A DNA stretch of 64,000 bases, from the NCBI RefSeq assembly GCF_041248615.1, contig NZ_CP158426.1. One strand, written 5' to 3'. Below are positions 5,485 to 42,306 of this stretch, piece by piece. Within the stretch, counting starts at the first letter, position 1. Each line of letters opens with the position of its first letter. The translations under genes and the position numbers were made by a program. The notes below the pieces were generated by a model. The model was not told where the DNA came from. It did no database searches and saw nothing but the letters and a program-made list of their open reading frames with translations. This stretch comes from Escherichia coli. Lineage in GTDB: Bacteria > Pseudomonadota > Gammaproteobacteria > Enterobacterales > Enterobacteriaceae.

Positions 5485-5530
5485 TGTAGGTCGGATAAGA
5501 CGCGTCAGCGTCGCATCCGACATTTCGGCC
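5485..5530. repeat. REP element
   Basis: tgtaggtcggataagacgcgtcagcgtcgcatccgac, REP-like palindrome between flgG and flgH. Confidence 0.6.
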
Positions 5531-6316
5531 TTACAGCGTCTGGCTGATGTACTGCAACATATCGTCCGCCGCCGACACCATTTTGGCGTTCATCTCGTAA
5601 GCGCGTTGCACCGTAATCATCGCCACCATTTCGTTGACGATATCCACGTTCGAGCCTTCCAGCGCATTGTCCTGCAAGGTGCCAAGCCCATCTTCGCCCG
5701 GTACGCCTTCGGTCGGCTGACCGCTGGCAGCGGTTTCCAGATAGAGGTTGTCGCCTTCAGCGGAAAGCCCCGCCGGGTTGGCGAAGTTCACCAGCGTCAG
5801 TTGCCCTAACTCAGTCACGTCGCTGTCGCCGGGTAAGATCGCTGTCACCGTGCCGTCCTCACCAAACGCAACATTCGTCGCCCCCGCCGGAACGTCGATT
5901 TCCGGCTGTAACGGCAAGCCTTGCGAGTTGGTCAGCACGCCGTCGGCGTTCACCTGCAAGTTGCCGTCGCGGGTATAGGCGATATCGCCGTTGGCCTTTT
6001 GCACCTGCAAAAACCCCTGCCCCATAATGGCGACATTCATCGCGTTGTCGGTGGTTTCGACGTTGCCTTCGGTGAAGGTTTTCTGAGTGCCAACAATGCG
6101 CACGCCGCTACCGAATTGCAGCCCGGTCGGCATGATGTTGTTCTGGTCGAGCATCGCGCCCGGCGCTTCCTGGGTCTGGTAGAACAGATCCTGAAACATC
6201 ACCCGGTCGCGCTTGAAGCCGGTGGTGTTAACGTTGGCGATGTTGTTGGCAATCGCGCTCATTTCAGCATCCTGCGCCGAGAGGCCGGTTTTGCTGATCC
6301 ATAATGCTGCGTTCAT
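5531..6316 (-). CDS. lfgG: Flagellar distal rod protein FlgG
   Basis: 261 aa; conserved rod N-terminus (ANNIANVNTTGFKRDR) and C-terminus (LEGSNVDIVNEMVAMITVQRAYEMNAK). Confidence 0.9.
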   Translation of the reverse strand: MNAALWISKTGLSAQDAEMSAIANNIANVNTTGFKRDRVMFQDLFYQTQEAPGAMLDQNNIMPTGLQFGSGVRIVGTQKTFTEGNVETTDNAMNVAIMGQGFLQVQKANGDIAYTRDGNLQVNADGVLTNSQGLPLQPEIDVPAGATNVAFGEDGTVTAILPGDSDVTELGQLTLVNFANPAGLSAEGDNLYLETAASGQPTEGVPGEDGLGTLQDNALEGSNVDIVNEMVAMITVQRAYEMNAKMVSAADDMLQYISQTL

Positions 6317-6342
6317 GGTGGTTTATTCCCTGGTGTCTGTTA

Positions 6343-7080
6343 TCACGAGCCGCGCAATAAGCGGTTGCCCGCGTCGCTGATATCTTCGGCGGTTTTCATC
6401 ATCTTGATCTGCGCTTCAAACTGGCGGTTCATGGCGATGGACGACATCATCTCGCTCACCGCCGAGACGTTACTGCCCTCCAGAAAACCGCCGCTAACTT
6501 TGATGTTTTCATCACGCTGGGCCGGAACGCCGTCGGCAGTTATCAGCATCCCTTCAGGATTTTTCGCCAGGTTAGCGACAGGAATATCCACCAGCTTCAG
6601 GCGGTCGATATCCATGGTTGCAGTCACGTCGCCGTCATCGGGCGTCACCGACAGCGTGCCGTCGCTGCCAAACGAAGCAATGGCGTTCGGCGGCAGAATG
6701 ATCGGGCCGTTATCCCCCAGCACCAGATTGCCGTCGATGGTCAGTTGCCCCTGGTCGTCCTGCTGAATGTTGCCGTTGCGGGTATACACTTCGTTGCCGT
6801 TTTTATCCTGCACCGCAATGTAACCCGCGCCCTGAATCGCCACGTCCAGCGGGCGTTCGGTTTTCTCCGCTACACCCGTGCTGTCGTTCACGCCGCTGGC
6901 CCCTTCCTGCGCCATATAGCGCGTGTCGAAGCCGCCGCCTTTCACCTTGTCGTTGGTCGCCATCGCCATGTCGGCGCGAAAACCGTTGGTGTTGACGTTC
7001 GCCAGGTTGTTGGCGCTAATCTGCTGCTCGTACAGGGTCTGAGAAGCACCGCTCAGGGCGGTATAAATCAGGCGGTCCAT
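6343..7080 (-). CDS. lfgF: Flagellar proximal rod protein FlgF
   Basis: 245 aa; rod-family N- and C-terminal motifs; gene order flgE-flgF-flgG. Confidence 0.85.
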   Translation of the reverse strand: MDRLIYTALSGASQTLYEQQISANNLANVNTNGFRADMAMATNDKVKGGGFDTRYMAQEGASGVNDSTGVAEKTERPLDVAIQGAGYIAVQDKNGNEVYTRNGNIQQDDQGQLTIDGNLVLGDNGPIILPPNAIASFGSDGTLSVTPDDGDVTATMDIDRLKLVDIPVANLAKNPEGMLITADGVPAQRDENIKVSGGFLEGSNVSAVSEMMSSIAMNRQFEAQIKMMKTAEDISDAGNRLLRGS

Positions 7081-8282
7081 TACATTGCCTGGAACAGCGC
7101 GTCATCGAGCTGCGTGCTGGTGGCGATAACTTTGGTGTTGGCCTGATAGTTACGCTGGGCGGTCATCAGGTTGACCAGTTCGCTGGTGATATCGACGTTA
7201 GAGCTTTCGAGCACGCCCGACGATAGCGTGCCGCAGGTGCCGGAGCCGGGAACGCCAATCAGCGGGGTGCCGGATTCCCCGGTTTGTACCCACGCGGTGC
7301 CGCTCACCGCTTCGAGTCCGTTTTCATTCGGGAAAGTCGCCAGCACCACCTGGCCCTGCAACATGCGCTCGCCGTTGCTGTAGGTGGCGTAAACTTTGCC
7401 ATCGTCATCGACCTGCACACCGTTTTGCGTTGCGGAGGCGTAGCCGTTGGCGGCGTTGGTGGTGACCGAAAATTCAGAGCCGTATTGCGTACAGGTGGAG
7501 TAATCGACGGTTAAGTCGATGGGTGCGGCGGCGTCGGTCTGAAACTCAATGGTCTGTGGCGTGGTTGGCGAGGTCAGCTTCCCGGTGTTCGGGTCGAAGG
7601 TTAATGTCGTCGCCGGAACGCCAGTCTGCTGCTGACCGTCGAAGGTGTACTGCACTTCCCAGGTGTTGTCGCTGGTTTTGGTGAAATACTGGCATACCGA
7701 GTGTTCGTTACCTAATGAGTCATATACCGTGGTGGTGTAGCTGTCGGTATACGAGCTGCTGTTGGTCGCGTCGAACGGTACGGTTGTACGGTCTATAGCC
7801 GCATCGCTGGCATCGAAGTTAGCGGTAAAGGTCAGGCTGCTGCTGGCCTGCGCCGGGATATTGCCGGTTTTGATCTGGATATCGGTGACCGTACCGGTTT
7901 GCAGAGTGCCCGTGTCATCGACCGGATAACCCTGTAAATAAGCGCCCGAGGCGTTGACAATATAGCCGTTTTTGTCGGTTTCAAACGATCCGGCGCGGGT
8001 ATAAGAAATGTTGCCCGCGCTGTCGCAGGTAACAAAAAAGCCGTCGTTGTTAATCGCCAGATCCAGCGCGTTACCGGTGGAGACCAGCGAACCGCCGCGC
8101 GAAATACTTTGCGCGGTGCCTGCCACGCTGACGCCCATCGCCTGACTTCCGGCATACATGGCTGAAAACTGGGTGGTCATCGACTTATAGCCTACCGTTC
8201 CGGCGTTGGCGATGTTGTTACTGATCCCGTCGAGCTGTTCGTTAACGGCATTCAGCCCCGTTGCGGCAATTTCATAACTCAT
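7080..8282 (-). CDS. lfgE: Flagellar hook protein FlgE
   Basis: 400 aa; hook-family termini (ISNNIANAGTVGYK ... LESSNVDITSELVNLMTAQRNYQANTKVI). Confidence 0.9.
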   Translation of the reverse strand: MSYEIAATGLNAVNEQLDGISNNIANAGTVGYKSMTTQFSAMYAGSQAMGVSVAGTAQSISRGGSLVSTGNALDLAINNDGFFVTCDSAGNISYTRAGSFETDKNGYIVNASGAYLQGYPVDDTGTLQTGTVTDIQIKTGNIPAQASSSLTFTANFDASDAAIDRTTVPFDATNSSSYTDSYTTTVYDSLGNEHSVCQYFTKTSDNTWEVQYTFDGQQQTGVPATTLTFDPNTGKLTSPTTPQTIEFQTDAAAPIDLTVDYSTCTQYGSEFSVTTNAANGYASATQNGVQVDDDGKVYATYSNGERMLQGQVVLATFPNENGLEAVSGTAWVQTGESGTPLIGVPGSGTCGTLSSGVLESSNVDITSELVNLMTAQRNYQANTKVIATSTQLDDALFQAM

Positions 8283-8329
8283 TGTTTCTTCCTGTTAATT
8301 CAAATTTTGACAGCGTGCCCGTTGTTTTG

Positions 8330-8410
8330 CCGGATGCGGCGTGAACGCCTTATCCGGCCTACAAAACCATGCAGTTTCATGTAGGCCTGATAAGCGAAGC
8401 GCATCAGGCA
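8330..8410. repeat. REP/BIME element (two inverted REP units)
   Basis: gccggatgcggcgtgaacgccttatccggcctaca ... tgtaggcctgataagcgaagcgcatcaggc between flgE and flgD. Confidence 0.7.
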
Positions 8411-8425
8411 ATTTGGCACCGGACA

Positions 8426-9139
8426 TCACGCCACATCACTGTCGGCATCGGGTACGCCAAACTGGCTAATCATGGTGAACGGCACTTCGCCCACGCCTGC
8501 AACATTGAGCACCGGAGAGCTGCCGTCGAGCGGGATGCGCACATCTTCCACTTCGCCGGAGACTTCAATCGGCACCTCTTCTTCCCCGGTGTTGGTGACC
8601 ACCGAGACGTCGTAATCGCCCGGCGGGATACCGTAATCCGCCGGATTAATCGAGAAATCGACCTGGCCTGGCCCGACGGACGAACTGCCTTCCGGGATCA
8701 GCGACACCGTATAGTCATCGCCTGCGGCATCGGTAAAGTGGAGATCGGCGGTGGTACAGGCGTCGTCAAGCGTGGCGCGACCATTAATGGTCTGGTCGCT
8801 CACCTGCAAGGCGGTGGTCTGCACCATAATGTCGTCACCCACCAGGTTGCCGAGCGCCATCACCTGAATGTTGCTCATCAGCACCGCGTTGGTGTTGGCC
8901 TGCACACTCATCTCTTCCATCATCGCCACCTGCGCCATCGAAGAAAGCTGGTCGATATATTCGGTGGCGTCAGTCGGGTCGGTCGGGTCCTGGTTTTGGA
9001 TCTCAGCGACAAACAGCGTCAGGAAAGTATCAACGGGCGAGCTATCGCTGCTACTTTGCGTGTCGCTGGCCGCCACGTTGTTGCTTTCCGCCGTGGCGGT
9101 CGGCTGCGGCGATTGCGCATTCAGCGCCAGGGTATTCAT
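8426..9139 (-). CDS. lfgD: Flagellar hook assembly/capping protein FlgD
   Basis: 237 aa; FlgD-like central motif (FLTLFVAEIQNQDPTDP); position between flgC and flgE. Confidence 0.85.
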   Translation of the reverse strand: MNTLALNAQSPQPTATAESNNVAASDTQSSSDSSPVDTFLTLFVAEIQNQDPTDPTDATEYIDQLSSMAQVAMMEEMSVQANTNAVLMSNIQVMALGNLVGDDIMVQTTALQVSDQTINGRATLDDACTTADLHFTDAAGDDYTVSLIPEGSSSVGPGQVDFSINPADYGIPPGDYDVSVVTNTGEEEVPIEVSGEVEDVRIPLDGSSPVLNVAGVGEVPFTMISQFGVPDADSDVA

Positions 9140-9570
9140 CAGGCTTCTCCCAGTTTCAGCAGGCTTTGCTGCATACTTTTCACGTTGTTGAGCACATCGA
9201 CATTGGTTTCAAAATCGCGCGAGGCCGACATCATGTCCGCCATCTGTTCCACCACGTTGACGTCGGGATACCAGACATCCCCGTTAGCATCGGCGAGCGG
9301 CGAATGCGGTTCATAGCGTTTCACCGCCCCGCCGGTTTGCAGCACGTCCTGCACCTGCACGCTGGCACCATCAATGGCATGGCGATGCGTTCCCGCCAGC
9401 AAGCTGTGGTGATACACCGCCGCAAACACCGGGCTGCGCGCTTTATACGCCTGCGCCTCGCTGCCGGCAGGTGCATTGGCATTCGCCAGGTTACTGGCAA
9501 CGGTATTCAGACGTAGCGTTTGCGCCGTCATCGCCGAGCCGGAAATCTGATAGATATCAGTAAATGACAT
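9139..9570 (-). CDS. lfgC: Flagellar rod protein FlgC
   Basis: 143 aa; MSFTDIYQISGSAMTAQ..NLANANA.. typical FlgC. Confidence 0.9.
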   Translation of the reverse strand: MSFTDIYQISGSAMTAQTLRLNTVASNLANANAPAGSEAQAYKARSPVFAAVYHHSLLAGTHRHAIDGASVQVQDVLQTGGAVKRYEPHSPLADANGDVWYPDVNVVEQMADMMSASRDFETNVDVLNNVKSMQQSLLKLGEA

Positions 9571-9572
9571 GC

Positions 9573-9908
9573 TTATTTCCCTTCAATGGCCTCTCTGATG
9601 CCGCTGATTTGCAGATTCAGAAAGGTCAGACTGCTTTGATAATCCATACTATTTTGTGAAAACCGCGCCTGTTCGCTGTTTAGTTCCACGGTGTTGCCAT
9701 CTTCCGACGGCTGCATCGGCACGCGGTACTGGACATCCACCGCCGCGTTATTTGCCCGTTGCATCTCCCTGGCAAAATCAATATCTTTAGCCTTGAAATT
9801 TGGCGTATCGACGTTCGCCAGATTCGCAGTCAGTAGCTCGGTCCTCTCAAGACGTAACTTCACTGCCTGCGGATGCACTCCCAATGCCTGTTGAAAACTG
9901 ATCCCCAT
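9573..9908 (-). CDS. lfgB: Flagellar rod protein FlgB
   Basis: FlgB motif LLTANLANVDTPNFKAKDIDF; start moved to ATG at 9908 because the ORF-track start 9938 lies upstream of the transcription start implied by the sigma-54 promoter. Confidence 0.85.
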   Translation of the reverse strand: MGISFQQALGVHPQAVKLRLERTELLTANLANVDTPNFKAKDIDFAREMQRANNAAVDVQYRVPMQPSEDGNTVELNSEQARFSQNSMDYQSSLTFLNLQISGIREAIEGK

Positions 9909-9944
9909 TTCCTGCGTCACTCCTGCTTCAATCCGCATACGCTA

Positions 9945-9960
9945 AGCAATCGCCGTGCCA
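9945..9960 (-). promoter_or_regulatory. sigma-54 (-24/-12) promoter for the lfgB operon
   Basis: Minus strand reads TGGCACGGCGATTGCT, a full match to TGGCACG-N4-TTGCW. Confidence 0.6.
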
Positions 9961-9989
9961 TTTTTTAAGTCACTGATGAGAAAGGGTTT

Positions 9990-10727
9990 ATGAGTTTTCA
10001 ATTTTGCAGGCGGAAGTTGTTCTTCCTCCTGGTGCTGGCCTTACCGGGCTACGCCGCCGTCCACCCCGTGCAACACAGCGCGCGGGAACAAGTCAACGCC
10101 CAGGTGCTGAATGCCGCGAGCCAGGAAATTGAATCGATGGCGCAGCAACGGCAGTGGCATGACTATCGCTACACCTTTAAGGTCTACATTCCCTCGCAGA
10201 TTGCGACCGCCGCCCCCTGTGCGACAACACCCGGCGTTACGCTCACTTCGCCTGCGGACATCGCCCTCAACCGGATGAACTTCACCGTCAGTTGCCCGCA
10301 AAGCTGGCAGATGAACGTGGCGGTGCGCCCGGATGTACTGGTGCCCGTGGTGATGACAAAGTCACTGGTTGCCCGCGATACGCCGCTCACGGCGAATGAT
10401 GTGGAGTTGAAGCCCTACAACTTCAGCGCCCAGCGGCGGGATGTGTTGATGGAGCTCGATGACGCAATTGGTTTAAGCAGTAAGCACGCGTTGCAACCGG
10501 GCAGGCCCATCACCAAAGAAGAGCTGGTTTCGCCAGTGCTGGTCGAACGCGATCAGCCGGTGATGATTGTTTACCAGAGCGCGGGGATCACCGCCTCGAT
10601 GCCCGGCGTGGCGCTGAAAAATGGCCGCAAAGGCGAGATGGTGAAAGTACGTAACGCAAGCAGCCAGCGGGTCATCAGCGCGATGGTGGCAGAAAGCGGC
10701 GTGGTGACGACGGTAAGCGCGGAGTAA
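9990..10727 (+). CDS. lfgA: Flagellar P-ring assembly chaperone FlgA-like
   Basis: 245 aa, signal peptide, divergent from flgB as in flagellar loci; moderate family resemblance. Confidence 0.75.
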   Translation: MSFQFCRRKLFFLLVLALPGYAAVHPVQHSAREQVNAQVLNAASQEIESMAQQRQWHDYRYTFKVYIPSQIATAAPCATTPGVTLTSPADIALNRMNFTVSCPQSWQMNVAVRPDVLVPVVMTKSLVARDTPLTANDVELKPYNFSAQRRDVLMELDDAIGLSSKHALQPGRPITKEELVSPVLVERDQPVMIVYQSAGITASMPGVALKNGRKGEMVKVRNASSQRVISAMVAESGVVTTVSAE

Positions 10728-10914
10728 TTTGCTGTAATACCGCGTAGCATATGTATGACTAGCTCCCAATATTCTGACTTTCTGACAAATTTCATTGTGT
10801 ATTTTGGATAATTATTGAGCACTCAATCACTACTGTTTAAATATCCAGATGATAACTATTTCATCTGGGTCAAATGAGTGATATTGTATCACCAATAAGA
10901 CCTACGGGGGTGCT

Positions 10915-12339
10915 ATGTCTGAATTTGAATTGCTCGTGAAAGATCTTCTTTTAAAATCAGAAGAAGACGAGAAAAAGCGACAAGAAAAAGATCGAGAATT
11001 AATTTCAAAGGTTCTTGAAATCTATGATCAAAAATATGTTGCAGAACTCCTACGAAAAGTAGGAAAAAATGAATGGAGCAGAGAAACACTTAACCGTTGG
11101 ATAAATGGTAAGTGTAACCCTAAACAATTAACTTCTGCTGAGGAAACTTTACTTCGAAAGATGCTCCCAGAACCTCCCGAACATCATCCTAACTATACAT
11201 TTCGTTTTATTGATTTATTCGCAGGGATTGGTGGTATTCGTAAAGGCTTCGAAAATATTGGTGGGCAGTGTGTTTTTACTAGCGAATGGAATAAAGAAGC
11301 GGTAAGAACCTACAAAGCTAATTGGTTTAATGATGAACTAAATCATAAATTTAATCTTGATATACGAGAAGTCACTTTAAGTGATAGAGATGATGTTTCC
11401 GAAATGGAAGCCTATAATCATATAGACAAAAATATTCCAGATCATGATGTCCTTCTGGCCGGTTTTCCATGTCAACCCTTTAGTCTGGCTGGGGTAAGCA
11501 AGAAAAATTCTCTGGGGCGTGCACATGGTTTTGAATGTGAGGCACAAGGAACACTATTTTTTGATGTCGCTCGAATTATTAAATCAAAAAAACCAGCTAT
11601 TTTTGTGCTTGAGAATGTGAAGAACCTTAAAAGTCATGATAAAGGTAAGACTTTTAAAGTCATCATGGAAACACTCAATGAATTAGGGTATGAAGTCGCC
11701 GATGCTGGTGTGACTGGCTCAGATGATCCTAAAATTATAGATGGAAAACATTTTTTACCCCAACATCGTGAGCGTATAGTGTTGGTAGGATTTCGTAGGG
11801 ATCTAAATATTCACAAGGATTTCACGTTACGAAATATTAACCGCTTTTACCCTCAAAACAGGCCAACATTTGGTGAATTATTAGATCATGATGTTGACGA
11901 CAAATATATTTTGACTCCAAGGTTATGGGAATATCTTTACAATTATGCAAAAAAACATGCAGCAAAAGGAAATGGATTTGGTTTTGGTTTAGTGGATCCT
12001 AAAAATCCAGATAGTATCGCACGAACGCTGTCTGCTCGTTACCATAAAGATGGCTCTGAAATACTGATCGATCGTGGCTGGGATAAGGCTGTCGGTGAAA
12101 TCGATTTTAGTAATCCAGCGAATCAAGAGAATCGACCAAGAAGACTGACACCTCATGAATGTGCCAGGTTAATGGGTTTTGAAAAACCAGGGGGAAGACC
12201 TTTTAGAATACCTGTATCAGATACTCAAGCTTATAGACAATTTGGGAACTCAGTTGTTGTGCCAGTATTTGAAGCTGTAGCAAGATTACTAGAACCGTAC
12301 ATACAAAAGGCTGTCAGCATGCAAGTTATTAACGATTAA
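10915..12339 (+). CDS. DNA cytosine-5 methyltransferase, Dcm/M.EcoRII family (predicted CCWGG specificity)
   Basis: 474 aa; motif I FAGIGG, motif IV PCQPFS, ENV, QFGNSV; near-collinear with M.EcoRII/Dcm as recalled; gene is AT-rich unlike flanks. Confidence 0.9.
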
Positions 12340-12362
12340 TAATAATTAACTTTCACTATTGT

Positions 12363-12386
12363 GAGGCCTTTTTTATTAAAGGCCTC
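12363..12386. terminator. Hairpin between convergent methyltransferase and endonuclease genes (candidate bidirectional terminator)
   Basis: gaggccttt-tttatt-aaaggcctc perfect 9-bp stem in AT-rich context. Confidence 0.4.
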
Positions 12387-12426
12387 TAAATATATAATCA
12401 TAAGTTATTATAAGTATACTTTTATA

Positions 12427-13632
12427 TTATACAAAATCTTCATACAGCGTTATTAACTGTGTGATAAAACCCTCTAACGTTAATAATCCCTCCCTGATTT
12501 CCTCCGGATATTTTTTATGAAGAGGGGAAGGTACAACCAAGGTGACACCTTCAGCTCTCATTTCGTTAAATTGAGCAACTGAGACACCCTCTTGTAAGGT
12601 AAACAAATATATTTTGTTGATTTTATTTGCTTCATTGAGTGCCTGACGCCACCGATCCTTACATGTTGTTTTTACAGCAAGCATACGGAGTTTTTCTCTT
12701 GGAAAGTGATCATCATGGTAAGCTGCCGCTGATGGAAAAAGAAAATCGGGTTTCTTTTTTCCTTCAGTAATACATTGAGTAGCAAAATGATGCAGTCCAT
12801 GCTCAATAAAAATTTGCTCAAGATGTAGCTCCAGTGATTTCCCGGCTCGAGATTTTCTTCGATTACTAACAGAGTTAGCCATAGCTATAAAATCATCTAC
12901 AGAACCAAACCCTTGACGGATGATGTCCAGTACGTGAATTTCTTCAACCATTAGAAAGAGATCATATTCAATACGGCGGCGTTCTAAAAGTTGGTCATCT
13001 GGACTGGTTACGCCTGTTGGGTAATAACCCGCAGCATATTGAATAATCTCTAAGCCAGAAGGAAAGCTATGTTTCCAGCTTTCCGGAATAACATATTCCT
13101 TTTGAGAGATTTTTGGCCTTGATGCGAGTACACCAAGTATTTCACTGGCAGGCCCAAACATTAAAGTTCCAGGAATGATCTCCCCAATAGCTGATTCCAG
13201 TACATCCTCTTCTTCTGGGCTAACACAAACCCATACATCAACACTTTTGCTGTCTCTCCCTGGCTCATGTTCAAACGCAAGCACAGACAAAGCACCTGTA
13301 TTTTCCGGATCCTGTAGGGGACTGCCAGCCCCCCACCGAGTGATGCGTTTTTCATTTCTTGTTTGCCCGAAATACTTATTATTGTAGTAAATAGCGCGAA
13401 CCTCACTGTCTACACATTCATGAGAGGAATAAGTTGCGCGCAATAAAACCGAAGGATTTTTTTCTGACGTATGATCTATAGATGGGAAAAGTTCAGCGAC
13501 GATACCAGAAGGGATATATACCCCCACTTGATGCCCTCCTGTTGCACCAGTGTCGTTTGCTGAAAGACGTTTAATATAGAGATAGTTGTTACCACCGACC
13601 TTATCAAGCAGCCAATCTTGTAATCCTGACAT
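12427..13632 (-). CDS. Type II restriction endonuclease, EcoRII-like
   Basis: 401 aa; N-terminal YIKRLSANDTGATGGHQVGVYIPSGI and overall layout match EcoRII as recalled; convergent with the MTase; AT-rich. Confidence 0.75.
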   Translation of the reverse strand: MSGLQDWLLDKVGGNNYLYIKRLSANDTGATGGHQVGVYIPSGIVAELFPSIDHTSEKNPSVLLRATYSSHECVDSEVRAIYYNNKYFGQTRNEKRITRWGAGSPLQDPENTGALSVLAFEHEPGRDSKSVDVWVCVSPEEEDVLESAIGEIIPGTLMFGPASEILGVLASRPKISQKEYVIPESWKHSFPSGLEIIQYAAGYYPTGVTSPDDQLLERRRIEYDLFLMVEEIHVLDIIRQGFGSVDDFIAMANSVSNRRKSRAGKSLELHLEQIFIEHGLHHFATQCITEGKKKPDFLFPSAAAYHDDHFPREKLRMLAVKTTCKDRWRQALNEANKINKIYLFTLQEGVSVAQFNEMRAEGVTLVVPSPLHKKYPEEIREGLLTLEGFITQLITLYEDFV

Positions 13633-13804
13633 AAGACATCCTTATTTTTGCATAGTATCCGATTCAGATTTTTCCACATATCCATCAGAACGACCAGAAC
13701 CAACATATCTGAACAAAAAGTAAATATGCGATAACGATTAAAGTTTTGCCGCCTGTTAACCGCTTTACCGGAGTAACCCACCTAAATACCGAGACGAGGT
13801 TGCG

Positions 13805-14080
13805 ATGAAAATCACCCCGACTATGCCAGGCAATCGCCCGACAGTCACAACGGCAGGCTCCAGCCAGCCGCGCAAAGGCACGGCGACCACCACGACGCTA
13901 AGCGCCGACGACATTACCCAGGCGGGATTGCAGTCTGCCCAGCAAACACTGAACGACCAGCAAGAGAGCGATATCGACAGCGATAAAGTGGCGCAAATGC
14001 AGGCGATGCTGGCCTCCGGCAGCCTGCAAGTGGACACCGAACAGTTAGCCAGCGACATGCTGAGTTTTTTCCAGAACTAA
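13805..14080 (+). CDS. lfgM: Anti-sigma-28 factor FlgM-like
   Basis: 91 aa; C-terminal pattern (IDSDKVAQMQAMLASGSLQVDTEQLASDML) typical of FlgM. Confidence 0.8.
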   Translation: MKITPTMPGNRPTVTTAGSSQPRKGTATTTTLSADDITQAGLQSAQQTLNDQQESDIDSDKVAQMQAMLASGSLQVDTEQLASDMLSFFQN

Positions 14081-14092
14081 GAGGCCGATGAA

Positions 14093-14521
14093 GTGAGTAT
14101 CCGGTTACAACAGGTGAAGGCGTTGTTGCAGGGAATTCGTGACGATGACGCGCTGTATGATTCCCTGCGCGAACTTCTCCAGCGTCAGCGGATCTGCATG
14201 ATTCGCCGCGCCAGCGAAGAGCTGCTGGCGGTAAACGAGGAGATAACCCATCACTATGAGCAGTTGCATGGGCATAGCCATCAGCGGCACAGCCTGCTGA
14301 AAATGCTTAATGTCAGTGTAAATCGTGACGGTCTGGCGCAGGTTTTTGCCTGGCTTCCGGCGGTACAAAAAGCGGCAGCACAACAGTTGTGGCAACGCCT
14401 TGAGCAAAAAGCGGAACGCTGCAAAGCCTACAACGACAAAAACGGCGAGCTGTTGATTCGCCAGTATGAATTTATTCAGTCTTTTTTAGGTAGCGAAGCA
14501 GATTTTCTCTATCAGGAATAA
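14093..14521 (+). CDS. lfgN: Flagellar export chaperone FlgN-like
   Basis: 142 aa helical protein directly downstream of flgM; weak but consistent family resemblance. Confidence 0.65.
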   Translation: MSIRLQQVKALLQGIRDDDALYDSLRELLQRQRICMIRRASEELLAVNEEITHHYEQLHGHSHQRHSLLKMLNVSVNRDGLAQVFAWLPAVQKAAAQQLWQRLEQKAERCKAYNDKNGELLIRQYEFIQSFLGSEADFLYQE

Positions 14522-14597
14522 CGCGAATACCTTCCCCATAGCGGAAATGGATTTTCCGCCTGATTCACAATCCTTTGTTTTTGATTATAAAAATTCC

Positions 14598-14613
14598 CGG
14601 CACGCTTATTGCA
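14598..14613 (+). promoter_or_regulatory. sigma-54 (-24/-12) promoter upstream of hypothetical/glycosyltransferase operon
   Basis: cGGCACGcttaTTGCA, 15/16 match to TGGCACG-N4-TTGCA, 35 nt upstream of ATG at 14648. Confidence 0.55.
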
Positions 14614-14647
14614 CATTCCGCAAAGTAATAAAGACTGGAAGCCACCT

Positions 14648-15580
14648 ATGAGTTTTATTGAATGTTACGAACCGGAATACGTGCGCAATTTTATGACGCA
14701 ATATCCCGATTCGCCTTTGTACATCCGCAAGGTGTGGAAAAACGAGATTCGCCAGAGCCTGATGCTGACAGAGCCAGAAAGCTGCGAAGCGGTGCTCAAC
14801 GATGCCAGGGCCTTTGATTTACAGCTCACCTACCGCCCGGCGGAAGATAATGCCGCAGAACTCTCCGCGCGCGATGCGATAGTAAACCAGGTCATTTTGA
14901 GCACCCTTACGCTCCCCGATTTACCCCCGGAGCTTTCACTGTACGCCGTCGGGATTTTGCTCTCCCGCGCCAGCAAAATGCCGGGCAGAGACGGAGATAT
15001 TCTTGCCCGCTTGACGACGCTGCCACAGGCGCTGGCCGATCATGCACAAAAAGGCACGCTACAGGCACAGTTCGCCCAGCTGCCGCCCGTGCCACAGCTG
15101 GCGCGCCAGTTGATGACGCTGCTCGGCAGTTGTGCGTTTGACTGGTCGATTCTGCCGGAAAGCCCGCGCAAAACTTCGCTGCCGTTGCAGATGCCTTTGC
15201 TGGCGCTACATGACGCCAACAGCGAAGCCCTGTTACAACAGCAGCTTCAGGCACAGTGGCAAACCACCTGGCAACAGCATTTTGCCACCGCGCCCTGGAT
15301 GATGCGTAACTGGCTGATTTACCGCGTTTACCATGAGGTGATTGGGCAGGCAGACGGAGCAGATTATTGCCCGCTGGTGTGCGATTTTTATCTTATCCGC
15401 ACGTTAATCAGTTTATGGACGCTGGATGGTTCTCCGCTGCGACAGGAGGATATTTTCGCCCTCTTTGCCATGTTTGAACGCTGGCGAGCCAGTGAAAATG
15501 CTGTGCTGATTCGCCAACAAATTCAGGCTGAACGTTCCGCAGATCCCCTGCTTTATGCGTTTTCACTGCTGTCTTGCTAA
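14648..15580 (+). CDS. Hypothetical protein (Flag-2 associated, family not recognised)
   Basis: Long ORF with ATG at 14648 downstream of the sigma-54 promoter; ORF-track start 14609 is a TTG inside the promoter. Confidence 0.6.
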   Translation: MSFIECYEPEYVRNFMTQYPDSPLYIRKVWKNEIRQSLMLTEPESCEAVLNDARAFDLQLTYRPAEDNAAELSARDAIVNQVILSTLTLPDLPPELSLYAVGILLSRASKMPGRDGDILARLTTLPQALADHAQKGTLQAQFAQLPPVPQLARQLMTLLGSCAFDWSILPESPRKTSLPLQMPLLALHDANSEALLQQQLQAQWQTTWQQHFATAPWMMRNWLIYRVYHEVIGQADGADYCPLVCDFYLIRTLISLWTLDGSPLRQEDIFALFAMFERWRASENAVLIRQQIQAERSADPLLYAFSLLSC

Positions 15581-15626
15581 CGCTTTTTGGCCGGTTTTCC
15601 CGGCCTTATCGACTTCGTAAACTATC

Positions 15627-34411: not shown

Positions 34412-35168
<757 letters not shown>

Positions 35169-35272
35169 ATCAGCATACTTGTCCTTAGCCTTCTGCAGTG
35201 ACAGCTGGTAGTACAGCGTGCTTCTGGCCAGCCCTGCAGCCTTTAACAGGTCAGACTGGCAGTGTCCGCACC

Positions 35273-35803
35273 TCAGGCTCCGGATGACTTTCGTTTTTTC
35301 TCCAGCTCCTGGCGCTTTTTTTCCAGGAGATGCTCCTGCATGGCTTTCAGATATGCATTTTCTGCGCGAAGATAACGCAGCTCATTCTTCATCTCTTCCG
35401 GCGTCATGTTTGCCTCGTTTTCATGGGTATCATCAGAACGGGTCATGCTTTTCTCCTTCCTGCGCCTGATAAAGGCCTCATTACCAGATTTGCGGTAGCC
35501 TTTTATCCAGTTTTTAACCGTGTTGTGGCTGGGAATGTTAAACCGGGCAGCTACCCGGGGTAGAGACTCAGAATGCCCGAGAGCATAAAGAACCACGCAA
35601 AGTTTATCTTCAGGAGAATAGCTACGCTTGTGTCTGCAATCCAGTGCCCGAGGACCGTGAAGAAGAAAAAGATTAATCCAGTGTGAGAGGCTGGTGTGAG
35701 AAAGTTGAAAGAGTTTTGCCGTAGAAATGATGCCTGCATGACCAGCCAGGTAATGATTTACAGCGGCAAGTTTTACTTCAAATGAATGTTTCATAAACTG
35801 CAC
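35273..35803 (-). CDS. IS3-family transposase OrfA (HTH/leucine zipper)
   Basis: 176 aa; HTH and C-terminal leucine zipper typical of IS3 OrfA. Confidence 0.85.
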   Translation of the reverse strand: MQFMKHSFEVKLAAVNHYLAGHAGIISTAKLFQLSHTSLSHWINLFLLHGPRALDCRHKRSYSPEDKLCVVLYALGHSESLPRVAARFNIPSHNTVKNWIKGYRKSGNEAFIRRRKEKSMTRSDDTHENEANMTPEEMKNELRYLRAENAYLKAMQEHLLEKKRQELEKKRKSSGA

Positions 35804-40671: not shown

Positions 40672-40990
40672 TCAGAAGTGACCGTCAAGGCGGTCACCGA
40701 ACTCGATAATAAAGCGACTCTTCCCTATCCGCCAGTCCTGAAGTGGCATCGTCCATTTTTGCGACGCTGACTGGAAAGCCAGCCACACCACTTTTTTCAC
40801 CGACTCATCTGTCGGGAACACTTTCCGTTTCTTTATCGCATGTGTGATGATGCTATTCAGCGATTCGATTGCGTTAGTGGTGTAGATAACCTTGCGGATC
40901 GCCTCCGGGTACACGAAGAATGTGGCAACATTCGGCCAGTTTGCCCGCCAGCTGCGACTTATCTGCGGGTACCGTGCATCCCATTCCTTC
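40672..40990 (-). pseudogene. IS256-family (mutator-type) transposase, C-terminal fragment only
   Basis: Encodes ..ANWPNVATFFVYPEAIRKVIYTTNAIESLN...KWTMPLQDWR.. which matches only the last ~105 aa of IS256-like transposases. Confidence 0.6.
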
Positions 40991-41001
40991 CCAGGGAAAG
41001 A

Positions 41002-42119
41002 TTACGAAAGCCCGCTCCCCGCAAGGACTGACGCCAGATAGTTTCTGTCCATGGCTGCTTTTCGCATCTTACGTCTTAACCCTGCCTTGAATACCTTATC
41101 ATTCGTCAAAATATTAATAGCGATGTGCCGTATCCCTGAAAATAATTCTGCTGCATTTCCTCTTCTTATTTTGCAGTCGTCTTCATTCATTACCACGTCC
41201 AGACGCCAGTGCAGCTTATTCTCCACGTGCCAGTGGTTTCGGATTGCTGTGGCGAACTTCTCTGCGGTTAAATCAGCAGAACTAATATAATATCTGACCG
41301 TCATTTCTGGCTCTTTCTTTTGTTCTGCTATTATTGACCGAAAGGAGACTGCCACGCATAATTTCTTCAGACCTTTCCATTCAAACGTGAAATCAATAAG
41401 TTCATCAGGGACATCGCAAACAATGTGAAGACGGATTTCTTCTCTGCCGTGACTCTTTTCACTCATTGCGTAACTGTCATGCTCTGGATTATTTAATTCT
41501 TTCAGCGGAAATTCTCGAAGGCTTTATTTAGCCGCCCCTGGTTTCCTTTTACAGCGAATAAATAATCACCTCCCTGTTTTTGTATCTTCTCTGCAATATC
41601 TTTCTGGCAACCCATCGCATCAGTTGTGATGATTTTTCCTTTAATATCCAGCATGTTAAGAAGTTCTGGGATAGCTGTAATTTCATTGGATTTCTCATCC
41701 GTCCTGATCTGTCCGATGACCAGACTGTGCATTGTTGAGAACGCACTAATGACATGAATCGCTCCCTTGCGGCGACTCTTGTCATAAGAATGCCGGAGTG
41801 TTTTTCCATCAATTGCGATGACGTCTTTATCATCTGAAGTATGGCAATCTCGCATCCAGTTAATAAAGCACTCGTGAAATTTTGCAGGACTGATACAGGA
41901 TACAACTCTGGCGATGGTATCGTGAACAGGAATACCATTTTCAAAATCACCGTATTGTTTTAAAAAATCGAGATGTGTTTCCCCAAAATCCTCTATATCT
42001 TCCCAACCTTCCGCACCCGAAATAACAGCACAAATAGTCAACAGTAGAATATCCGATAATTTATGTTCCACTTTCCAGGCTTGTCTGTAATCGGGGATAA
42101 TAGAAATATGCCCCATCAA
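41002..42119 (-). pseudogene. ISAs1-family (H-repeat-associated) transposase, frameshifted
   Basis: Two ORFs (41502-42119 and 41002-41466) cover N- and C-terminal parts; reading continues in another frame across 41466-41505 ([15 protein letters not shown]), showing a small deletion near KAFE|NF. Confidence 0.75.
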
Positions 42120-42306
42120 TTTTTTAAGTTCTATTTTGTTCTCCTTAATTATGTAAGGAGTATTTGATCATGTATAAGCAATAAAAAACAGCTTTAGGTA
42201 ATGAGGAATATCTCAATTTTTAAGCATAAAATGCGAATTGTTTAGTACAAAAAAGCAGCGTTACGTGATCTTTCCCTGCACTTCACCCTAACTTTAATTT
42301 AACTTC

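Follow-up and report, generated by a model that had tools for sequence, protein, structure and literature searches.

The Flag-2 (lateral flagella) gene cluster of Escherichia coli NRZ14408 carries, as cargo, a block of DNA that is very probably a self-contained, horizontally acquired type II restriction-modification unit of the EcoRII type; we put the probability of this reading at roughly 0.88. The block was analyzed within a stretch of 64,000 nucleotides, referred to here as the window, in which the Flag-2 cluster spans lfgL to lfhA. Positions 9000-15600 of the window are 100% identical to positions 4204545-4211145 of the chromosome of E. coli NRZ14408 (NZ_LT599825.1), for which the RefSeq annotation gives, in this order, flgA, a DNA cytosine methyltransferase, a type II restriction endonuclease, flgM, and flgN. 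The left neighbor of the block is lfgA, the Flag-2 homologue of flgA (9990-10727, plus strand; assigned by TIGR03170 and annotation). To the right follow lfgM, encoding the anti-sigma-28 factor (13805-14080, plus strand; TIGR03824 and annotation), and lfgN (14093-14521, plus strand; annotation).

A sequence-only reading of this DNA had described an AT-rich block of about 3 kb placed between lfgA and lfgMN, at a position where these genes are normally contiguous. Analysis of the base composition bore out the first part of this description: windowed GC content was 0.35-0.42 over positions 10750-13500 as compared to 0.55-0.60 in the flanks, and the GC3 values of the methylase and endonuclease genes were 0.24 and 0.31, respectively, as compared to 0.75 for lfgA. 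The second part was borne out by 1249 complete E. coli genomes in which lfgA and lfgM are contiguous and separated by a spacer of 80 bp, representing the empty site. The whole lfgA-lfgM intergenic stretch comprises positions 10728-13804; when it was aligned with the empty sites L002, L003, and L009 plus five further occupied loci, the inserted DNA proper was found to span positions 10733-13734. These 3002 bp, with an overall GC content of 0.382 as compared to 0.54-0.57 in the flanks, replace 5 bp, GC(A/G)GG, of the 80-bp spacer. The empty site reads GCGGAGTAATTTGC GC(A/G)GG CGATTAAAGTTTTGCC; the occupied site reads TAATTTGC / TGTAATACC at its left end and ATATGCGATAA / CGATTAAAG at its right end, with the slashes marking the junctions.

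A search at the insert ends (10733 and 13734) revealed neither terminal inverted repeats nor a duplication of the target; furthermore, no transposase, integrase, or other mobility gene is present among the two genes of the insert. Hence, a transposon, an integron cassette, and an integrase-borne island were rejected as explanations. A scan of positions 9800-14700 against Rfam at E ≤ 1 gave zero matches. The insert shows no avoidance of CCWGG, with four sites as compared to about 2.4 expected from base composition by a rough estimate. Homology to related modules elsewhere is confined to positions 10812-13634, and about 80-100 bp of DNA unrelated to other modules are located at each end of the insert. 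From the extent of this homology, the transferred unit essentially consists of the methylase gene with its control region, a hairpin, and the endonuclease gene, in addition to these unrelated ends.

The two genes of the insert are convergent, as had been noted before, with the methylase gene on the plus strand (10915-12339) and the endonuclease gene on the minus strand (12427-13632). The latter encodes a protein of 401 amino acids which had been called EcoRII-like, and detailed comparison supported its assignment as an EcoRII-type (type IIE, CCWGG) restriction endonuclease. Residues 1-400 match residues 3-403 of the EcoRII structure 1NA6, that is, its full length, with E = 3e-188, and the N and C domains of EcoRII that were crystallised on their own are matched as well. 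Both Pfam domains, EcoRII-N (PF09217, E = 4e-60) and EcoRII-C (PF09019, E = 3e-70), are present, so that no loss of a domain was seen. The functional residues of EcoRII were taken from Golovenko et al. (2009; PMC2770665); the endonuclease keeps 26 of these 27 residues, and the sole change, K92Q, affects one of six phosphate contacts. The 21 residues that take part in catalysis, read CC:GG, form the flipped-base pocket, or contact bases from the effector domain are all kept. The complete PD-(D/E)XK active site formed in EcoRII by E271, D299, K324, and E337 (4/4) corresponds to E268, D296, K321, and E334 here. In EcoRII numbering, the CC:GG readers K328, D329, R330, and N260, the flipped-base pocket R222, E225, Y226, F229, R265, and A266, and the seven effector-domain base contacts N28, H36, Q37, Y85, R94, E96, and R98 are likewise all retained. 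The endonuclease is 69.5% identical to EcoRII, evenly across both domains, and it is from the conservation of residues at this level of identity that its activity and its CCWGG specificity are predicted. The region upstream of the endonuclease gene (13633-13734, minus strand), its presumed promoter, is without homology to other modules; a GAACGACCA repeat located there shows an 18-bp expansion in strain ETEC1738.

The methylase gene encodes a C5 cytosine methyltransferase of the M.EcoRII type with 474 amino acids. Its proposed membership in the Dcm/M.EcoRII family was confirmed by a score of 912 bits with NCBIfam PRK10458 (NF007772), for which the cut-off is 710. The protein contains the Pfam domains PF00145 (E = 1e-78) and DNA_meth_N (PF18284, E = 1.6e-26, residues 28-84), and the C5-methyltransferase motifs FAGIGG, PCQ, ENV, and GNS were seen in the alignment. 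Its identity to the methylases from plasmid EcoRII-type modules amounts to 84-87%, as compared to 68% for the Dcm protein of the host. Being closer to the plasmid enzymes than to Dcm, the methylase is an orthologue of M.EcoRII and not a copy of dcm.

The methylase gene is preceded by a region of about 83 bp before the ATG (10832-10914, plus strand), which is conserved in the modules of EcoRII-type plasmids, Yokenella, K. spallanzanii, and K. grimontii, whose endonucleases are 59-78% identical to the present one. Two inverted repeats were found in this region, namely CCAGATGA-N8-TCATCTGG (10845-10868) and GTGATA-N3-TATCAC (10878-10892). A binding site of M.EcoRII was reportedly mapped by Som and Friedman in 1994. 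According to a review, M.EcoRII represses its own gene via a fused repressor domain, and does so only when CCWGG is already methylated, for example by Dcm (PMC12707154). By analogy, we regard the region 10832-10914 as a candidate promoter/operator for autorepression of the methylase.

The 87-bp spacer between the convergent genes contains the hairpin that had also been pointed out in the sequence-only reading. It is located at positions 12363-12386 and consists of GAGGCCTTT-N6-AAAGGCCTC, with a GC-rich stem of 9 bp and a loop of 6 nt. The hairpin was supported both by folding and by an inverted-repeat search; a stretch of 96 nt holding it gave folding z-values of -3.9 for the plus strand and -4.5 for the minus strand as compared to shuffled sequences. 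A scan for consensus terminators did not flag the hairpin, and a canonical T-tail is absent. A bidirectional transcription stop is the probable role of this structure.

The same two-domain endonuclease and a methylase composed of DNA_meth_N and a C5-methyltransferase core are found in the plasmid EcoRII system (type IIE, CCWGG; 1NA6, 3HQF, 3HQG), and plasmid EcoRII-type modules also share the convergent gene order and the conserved region upstream of the methylase gene. In contrast to plasmid EcoRII, the block is chromosomal, lies inside a flagellar cluster, and has a GC content of 0.37-0.41 as compared to 0.51 for the plasmid genes. Differences from the plasmid EcoRII-type modules were also found between the genes, where the hairpin sequence is a different one and the spacer comprises 87 bp instead of 34-43 bp.

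The block was detected in 28 of 5426 complete E. coli genomes, in all cases on the chromosome and with 96.4-100% identity; these 28 belong to about 1277 complete genomes bearing Flag-2. The junctions were identical in all six occupied loci examined, the most divergent ones included, which indicates a single insertion event. Both open reading frames were intact in six of six occupied loci examined, and a pseudogene annotation at the block was found in none of the 28 occupied genomes. The ratio dN/dS was 0.02-0.12 for both genes, with maximal dS values of 0.21 (methylase) and 0.13 (endonuclease). Intact genes, low dN/dS, and dS values up to 0.2 together indicate that the block is old and has been kept by purifying selection. 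It might instead be a decaying or inactive remnant, consisting of an orphan methylase and a dead endonuclease that are tolerated since Dcm covers CCWGG. The host Dcm indeed renders the methylase redundant and removes addiction pressure, and DNA as rich in AT as this may be transcriptionally silenced. However, full-length reading frames without pseudogene annotation, purifying selection over such a dS, and the retention of every catalytic residue make a remnant decidedly unlikely; as judged from its sequence, the block is probably functional.

Comparison of the window with strain ETEC1738 showed that positions 10710-14100 are nearly identical, whereas the adjoining lfgA differs with a dS of 0.155. 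The history of the block is thus decoupled from that of its neighbors, and evidently the block or its flanks moved among divergent Flag-2 haplotypes by homologous recombination.

The age of the module alleles and their one common junction would also fit a block that was part of Flag-2 from the beginning and has been lost by deletion in most lineages, the more so as deep alleles exist in neighboring Flag-2 genes too. We consider such an origin highly improbable. The GC3 values of 0.24-0.31 differ from the 0.75 of lfgA, the 80-bp spacer is clean and without a scar in the 1249 genomes with an empty site, and the canonical order lfgNMAB... holds across the Enterobacterales according to a published comparison (De Maayer et al. 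2020; PMC6993521). Furthermore, the nearest relative found outside E. coli is located in an unrelated AT-rich island. The view that the block is an insertion and not a constant ancestral part of Flag-2 is therefore upheld by its presence in a small number of Flag-2 genomes and by the clean empty sites in the others.

This nearest relative, an island of K. spallanzanii (L012), encodes an endonuclease with 78% amino acid identity and has a methylase gene with about 78% DNA identity. It is also AT-rich (about 0.40 GC) in a GC-rich chromosome and shares the gene order and the conserved upstream region; it differs by its other genomic context, its larger size of about 4.5 kb, and an extra reading frame of 320 amino acids. 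A scan of GTDB species representatives revealed no relative above 78% outside E. coli. In the plasmid collection, nearly all relatives showed protein identities below 80%, with one record in the band of 80-90%, and the plasmid module genes were GC-richer (0.43-0.52). The best full-length plasmid relatives among the matches listed reached about 70-74% protein identity, and on these grounds we rejected a known plasmid as the source of a recent transfer.

Recognition of a sequence different from CCWGG, such as the CCNGG of Ecl18kI/SsoII, could be suspected from the distance of the endonuclease to EcoRII (69.5% identity) and from the distant relationship of its catalytic domain to Ecl18kI, but it can practically be dismissed. 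The residues kept include E225 and F229 of the pocket, which are linked to discrimination of the central W, as well as Q37, Y85, and R98 of the N domain, which read the central T:A pair. The methylase, in turn, shows 84% identity to a plasmid EcoRII-type enzyme and 68% to Dcm along its entire length, the variable inter-motif stretch included.

E. coli had been expected to carry a chromosomal dcm gene of the same specificity, which would pre-protect the host and thereby ease acquisition of the block. An intact dcm-vsr locus is present on the same chromosome (NZ_LT599825.1, 2186255-2188124), its Dcm being 99.8% identical to K-12 Dcm, and a full-length relative of the methylase gene occurs in 5347 of 5426 complete E. 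coli genomes. Dcm has the same predicted target and domain layout as the Flag-2 methylase, to which it is 68% identical; however, Dcm is an orphan with vsr as its partner, its GC content is 0.52, and it is encoded at another locus, whereas the Flag-2 methylase has an endonuclease partner and no vsr. Protection by Dcm against EcoRII attack has been published, host killing after loss of EcoRII being attenuated (PMC3874152; PMC3424554). The postulated pre-protection agrees with this work, and a role of Dcm in easing acquisition is consistent with it. Since Dcm is present in the host, the block is unable to addict it, and DNA arriving from other Dcm-positive enterobacteria would escape restriction.

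For a functional, horizontally acquired EcoRII-type unit, the history and the mode of action can be summarized as follows. As the comparison of loci shows, a single event of illegitimate recombination brought the unit into the lfgA-lfgM spacer, where it took the place of 5 bp and left no sign of a transposon. Owing to the host Dcm of the same specificity, the chromosome was already protected when the unit arrived. Based on homology, the methylase would place 5-methylcytosine on the inner C of CCWGG, and the endonuclease would cut unmethylated CCWGG, cleavage being expected only once the N-terminal effector domain has bound a second CCWGG copy, as in EcoRII. Both genes converge on the hairpin, with the methylase gene bringing along its own upstream control region conserved in the EcoRII family, and the methylase is probably autorepressed through its N-terminal domain, in analogy to M.EcoRII. 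Going by published work on M.EcoRII and Dcm, a Dcm-positive host should survive losing the unit, and tight repression of the methylase is predicted. The unit has persisted under purifying selection, and homologous recombination has shuffled it among divergent Flag-2 haplotypes.

Additionally, we have considered the consequences of the insertion for the flagellar genes. The sequence-only reading had lfgMN cut off from the lfgA promoter and dependent on one of their own, which is plausible. Separation by 3 kb, together with the hairpin and a gene in antisense orientation, would make it unlikely that read-through from lfgA reaches lfgM. A candidate sigma-28 (LafS)-type promoter of lfgMN is located on the plus strand at positions 13739-13766 and reads TAAAGTTT-N12-ACCGCTTT, with the TAAAGTTT box (13739-13746) starting 4 bp right of the insertion junction. 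No second match of this kind occurs in the window, with 0.03 expected by chance; a search with the sigma-28 consensus found a perfect -35 element and a -10 element that agrees at no more than 4 of 8 positions. Across nine loci with a divergence of 5-10% in their coding flanks, the 44 bp adjoining the junction on its right side hardly vary, and the next 15 bp or so do vary. As a lead, the nearly invariant 44 bp and the TAAAGTTT match fit the retention of a sigma-28/LafS-type promoter for lfgMN. Probably, lfgMN would still be expressed from this candidate promoter of their own, uncoupled from lfgA read-through. In E. coli, H-NS or another silencer may act on AT-rich DNA like this block, and its expression is not guaranteed.

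The insertion might be relevant to flagellar regulation rather than to defence, as it interrupts read-through from lfgA into lfgMN and brings 3 kb of AT-rich DNA, perhaps bound by H-NS, close to the lfgM promoter; we regard this as unlikely. If true, the balance between the anti-sigma factor and sigma-28, and hence Flag-2 expression, could change in the 2% of strains carrying the block, and a flagellar role might help to explain purifying selection in a Dcm-positive host, in which the block should bring about no addiction and should not restrict DNA derived from E. coli.

De Maayer, Pillay & Coutinho (2020; PMC6993521) described EcoRII (401 aa) and Dcm (474 aa) as cargo that 21 Escherichia strains carry in their flag-2 loci. 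With this report, the occurrence of the pair in Flag-2 is already in the literature, and the present locus evidently belongs to the described set or is a sibling of it. The available text of the report lists the genes without giving junctions, the empty site, a single-event origin, selection, or regulatory elements (PMC6993521). The present analysis extends it by placing the junctions exactly, by tracing the block to a single event, and by documenting purifying selection and mosaic spread; it also adds support for CCWGG at the level of residues and the conserved control region of the methylase.

The block is an ordinary feature that matters little beyond bookkeeping, namely a textbook minimal restriction-modification unit in an operon-like cluster, without mobility genes. 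It represents an EcoRII-type system coexisting with the host Dcm, the published 'vaccine' against EcoRII of the same specificity. The age of the block (dS up to 0.2), combined with tight purifying selection in Dcm-positive hosts, makes it mildly interesting for the debate on restriction-modification systems as selfish elements or as defence. Finally, the precise empty and occupied junctions constitute a clean natural pair for the dependence of lfgMN on lfgA read-through.

The presumed promoter region of the endonuclease gene is polymorphic in length. A 9-bp repeat unit, GAACGACCA, lies upstream of this gene at window positions 13688-13701; in E. coli ETEC1738 the repeat was found to be longer by 18 bp, corresponding to two extra copies. 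Outside E. coli, the closest EcoRII-like module was that of Klebsiella spallanzanii (locus L012), which lies within an AT-rich island approximately 4.5 kb long (5500-10000). Immediately upstream of the methylase gene, the same island contains an uncharacterised ORF of 320 aa (9069-10031). The E. coli chromosome NZ_LT599825.1, which carries dcm-vsr, also harbors a lambdoid prophage (2150000-2175500) that adjoins zinT about 10 kb from dcm-vsr.

Mobile elements were also identified elsewhere in the window. A copy of IS1397 (IS3 family; 34446-35794) is inserted between yafJ and lpcA; further along, a frameshifted ISAs1 transposase and a truncated transposase, both within 40672-42134, adjoin an RHS element starting at about 42732.

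The segment 14609-18641 contains cargo of Flag-2 variable region 1. It includes genes for a glycosyltransferase of 821 aa, a cytidylyltransferase and a FliB-like lysine-N-methylase, the latter assigned with an NCBIfam score of 45.7 bits, which is under the cut-off of 85. The lysine-N-methylase gene carries a frameshift in ETEC1738. From about 15530 onward, some strain pairs were essentially non-homologous, with >100 mismatches per 200 bp.

Comparison of the window with loci L004-L008 revealed an unusually high polymorphism of lfgA within E. coli. Between-strain dS of lfgA was 0.08-0.32, and nucleotide divergence was about 10% in the last 400 bp of the gene (3' half, 10300-10727). The divergence of lfgA thus exceeds that of the adjoining foreign restriction-modification block, so that Flag-2 seems to hold deep allelic lineages.
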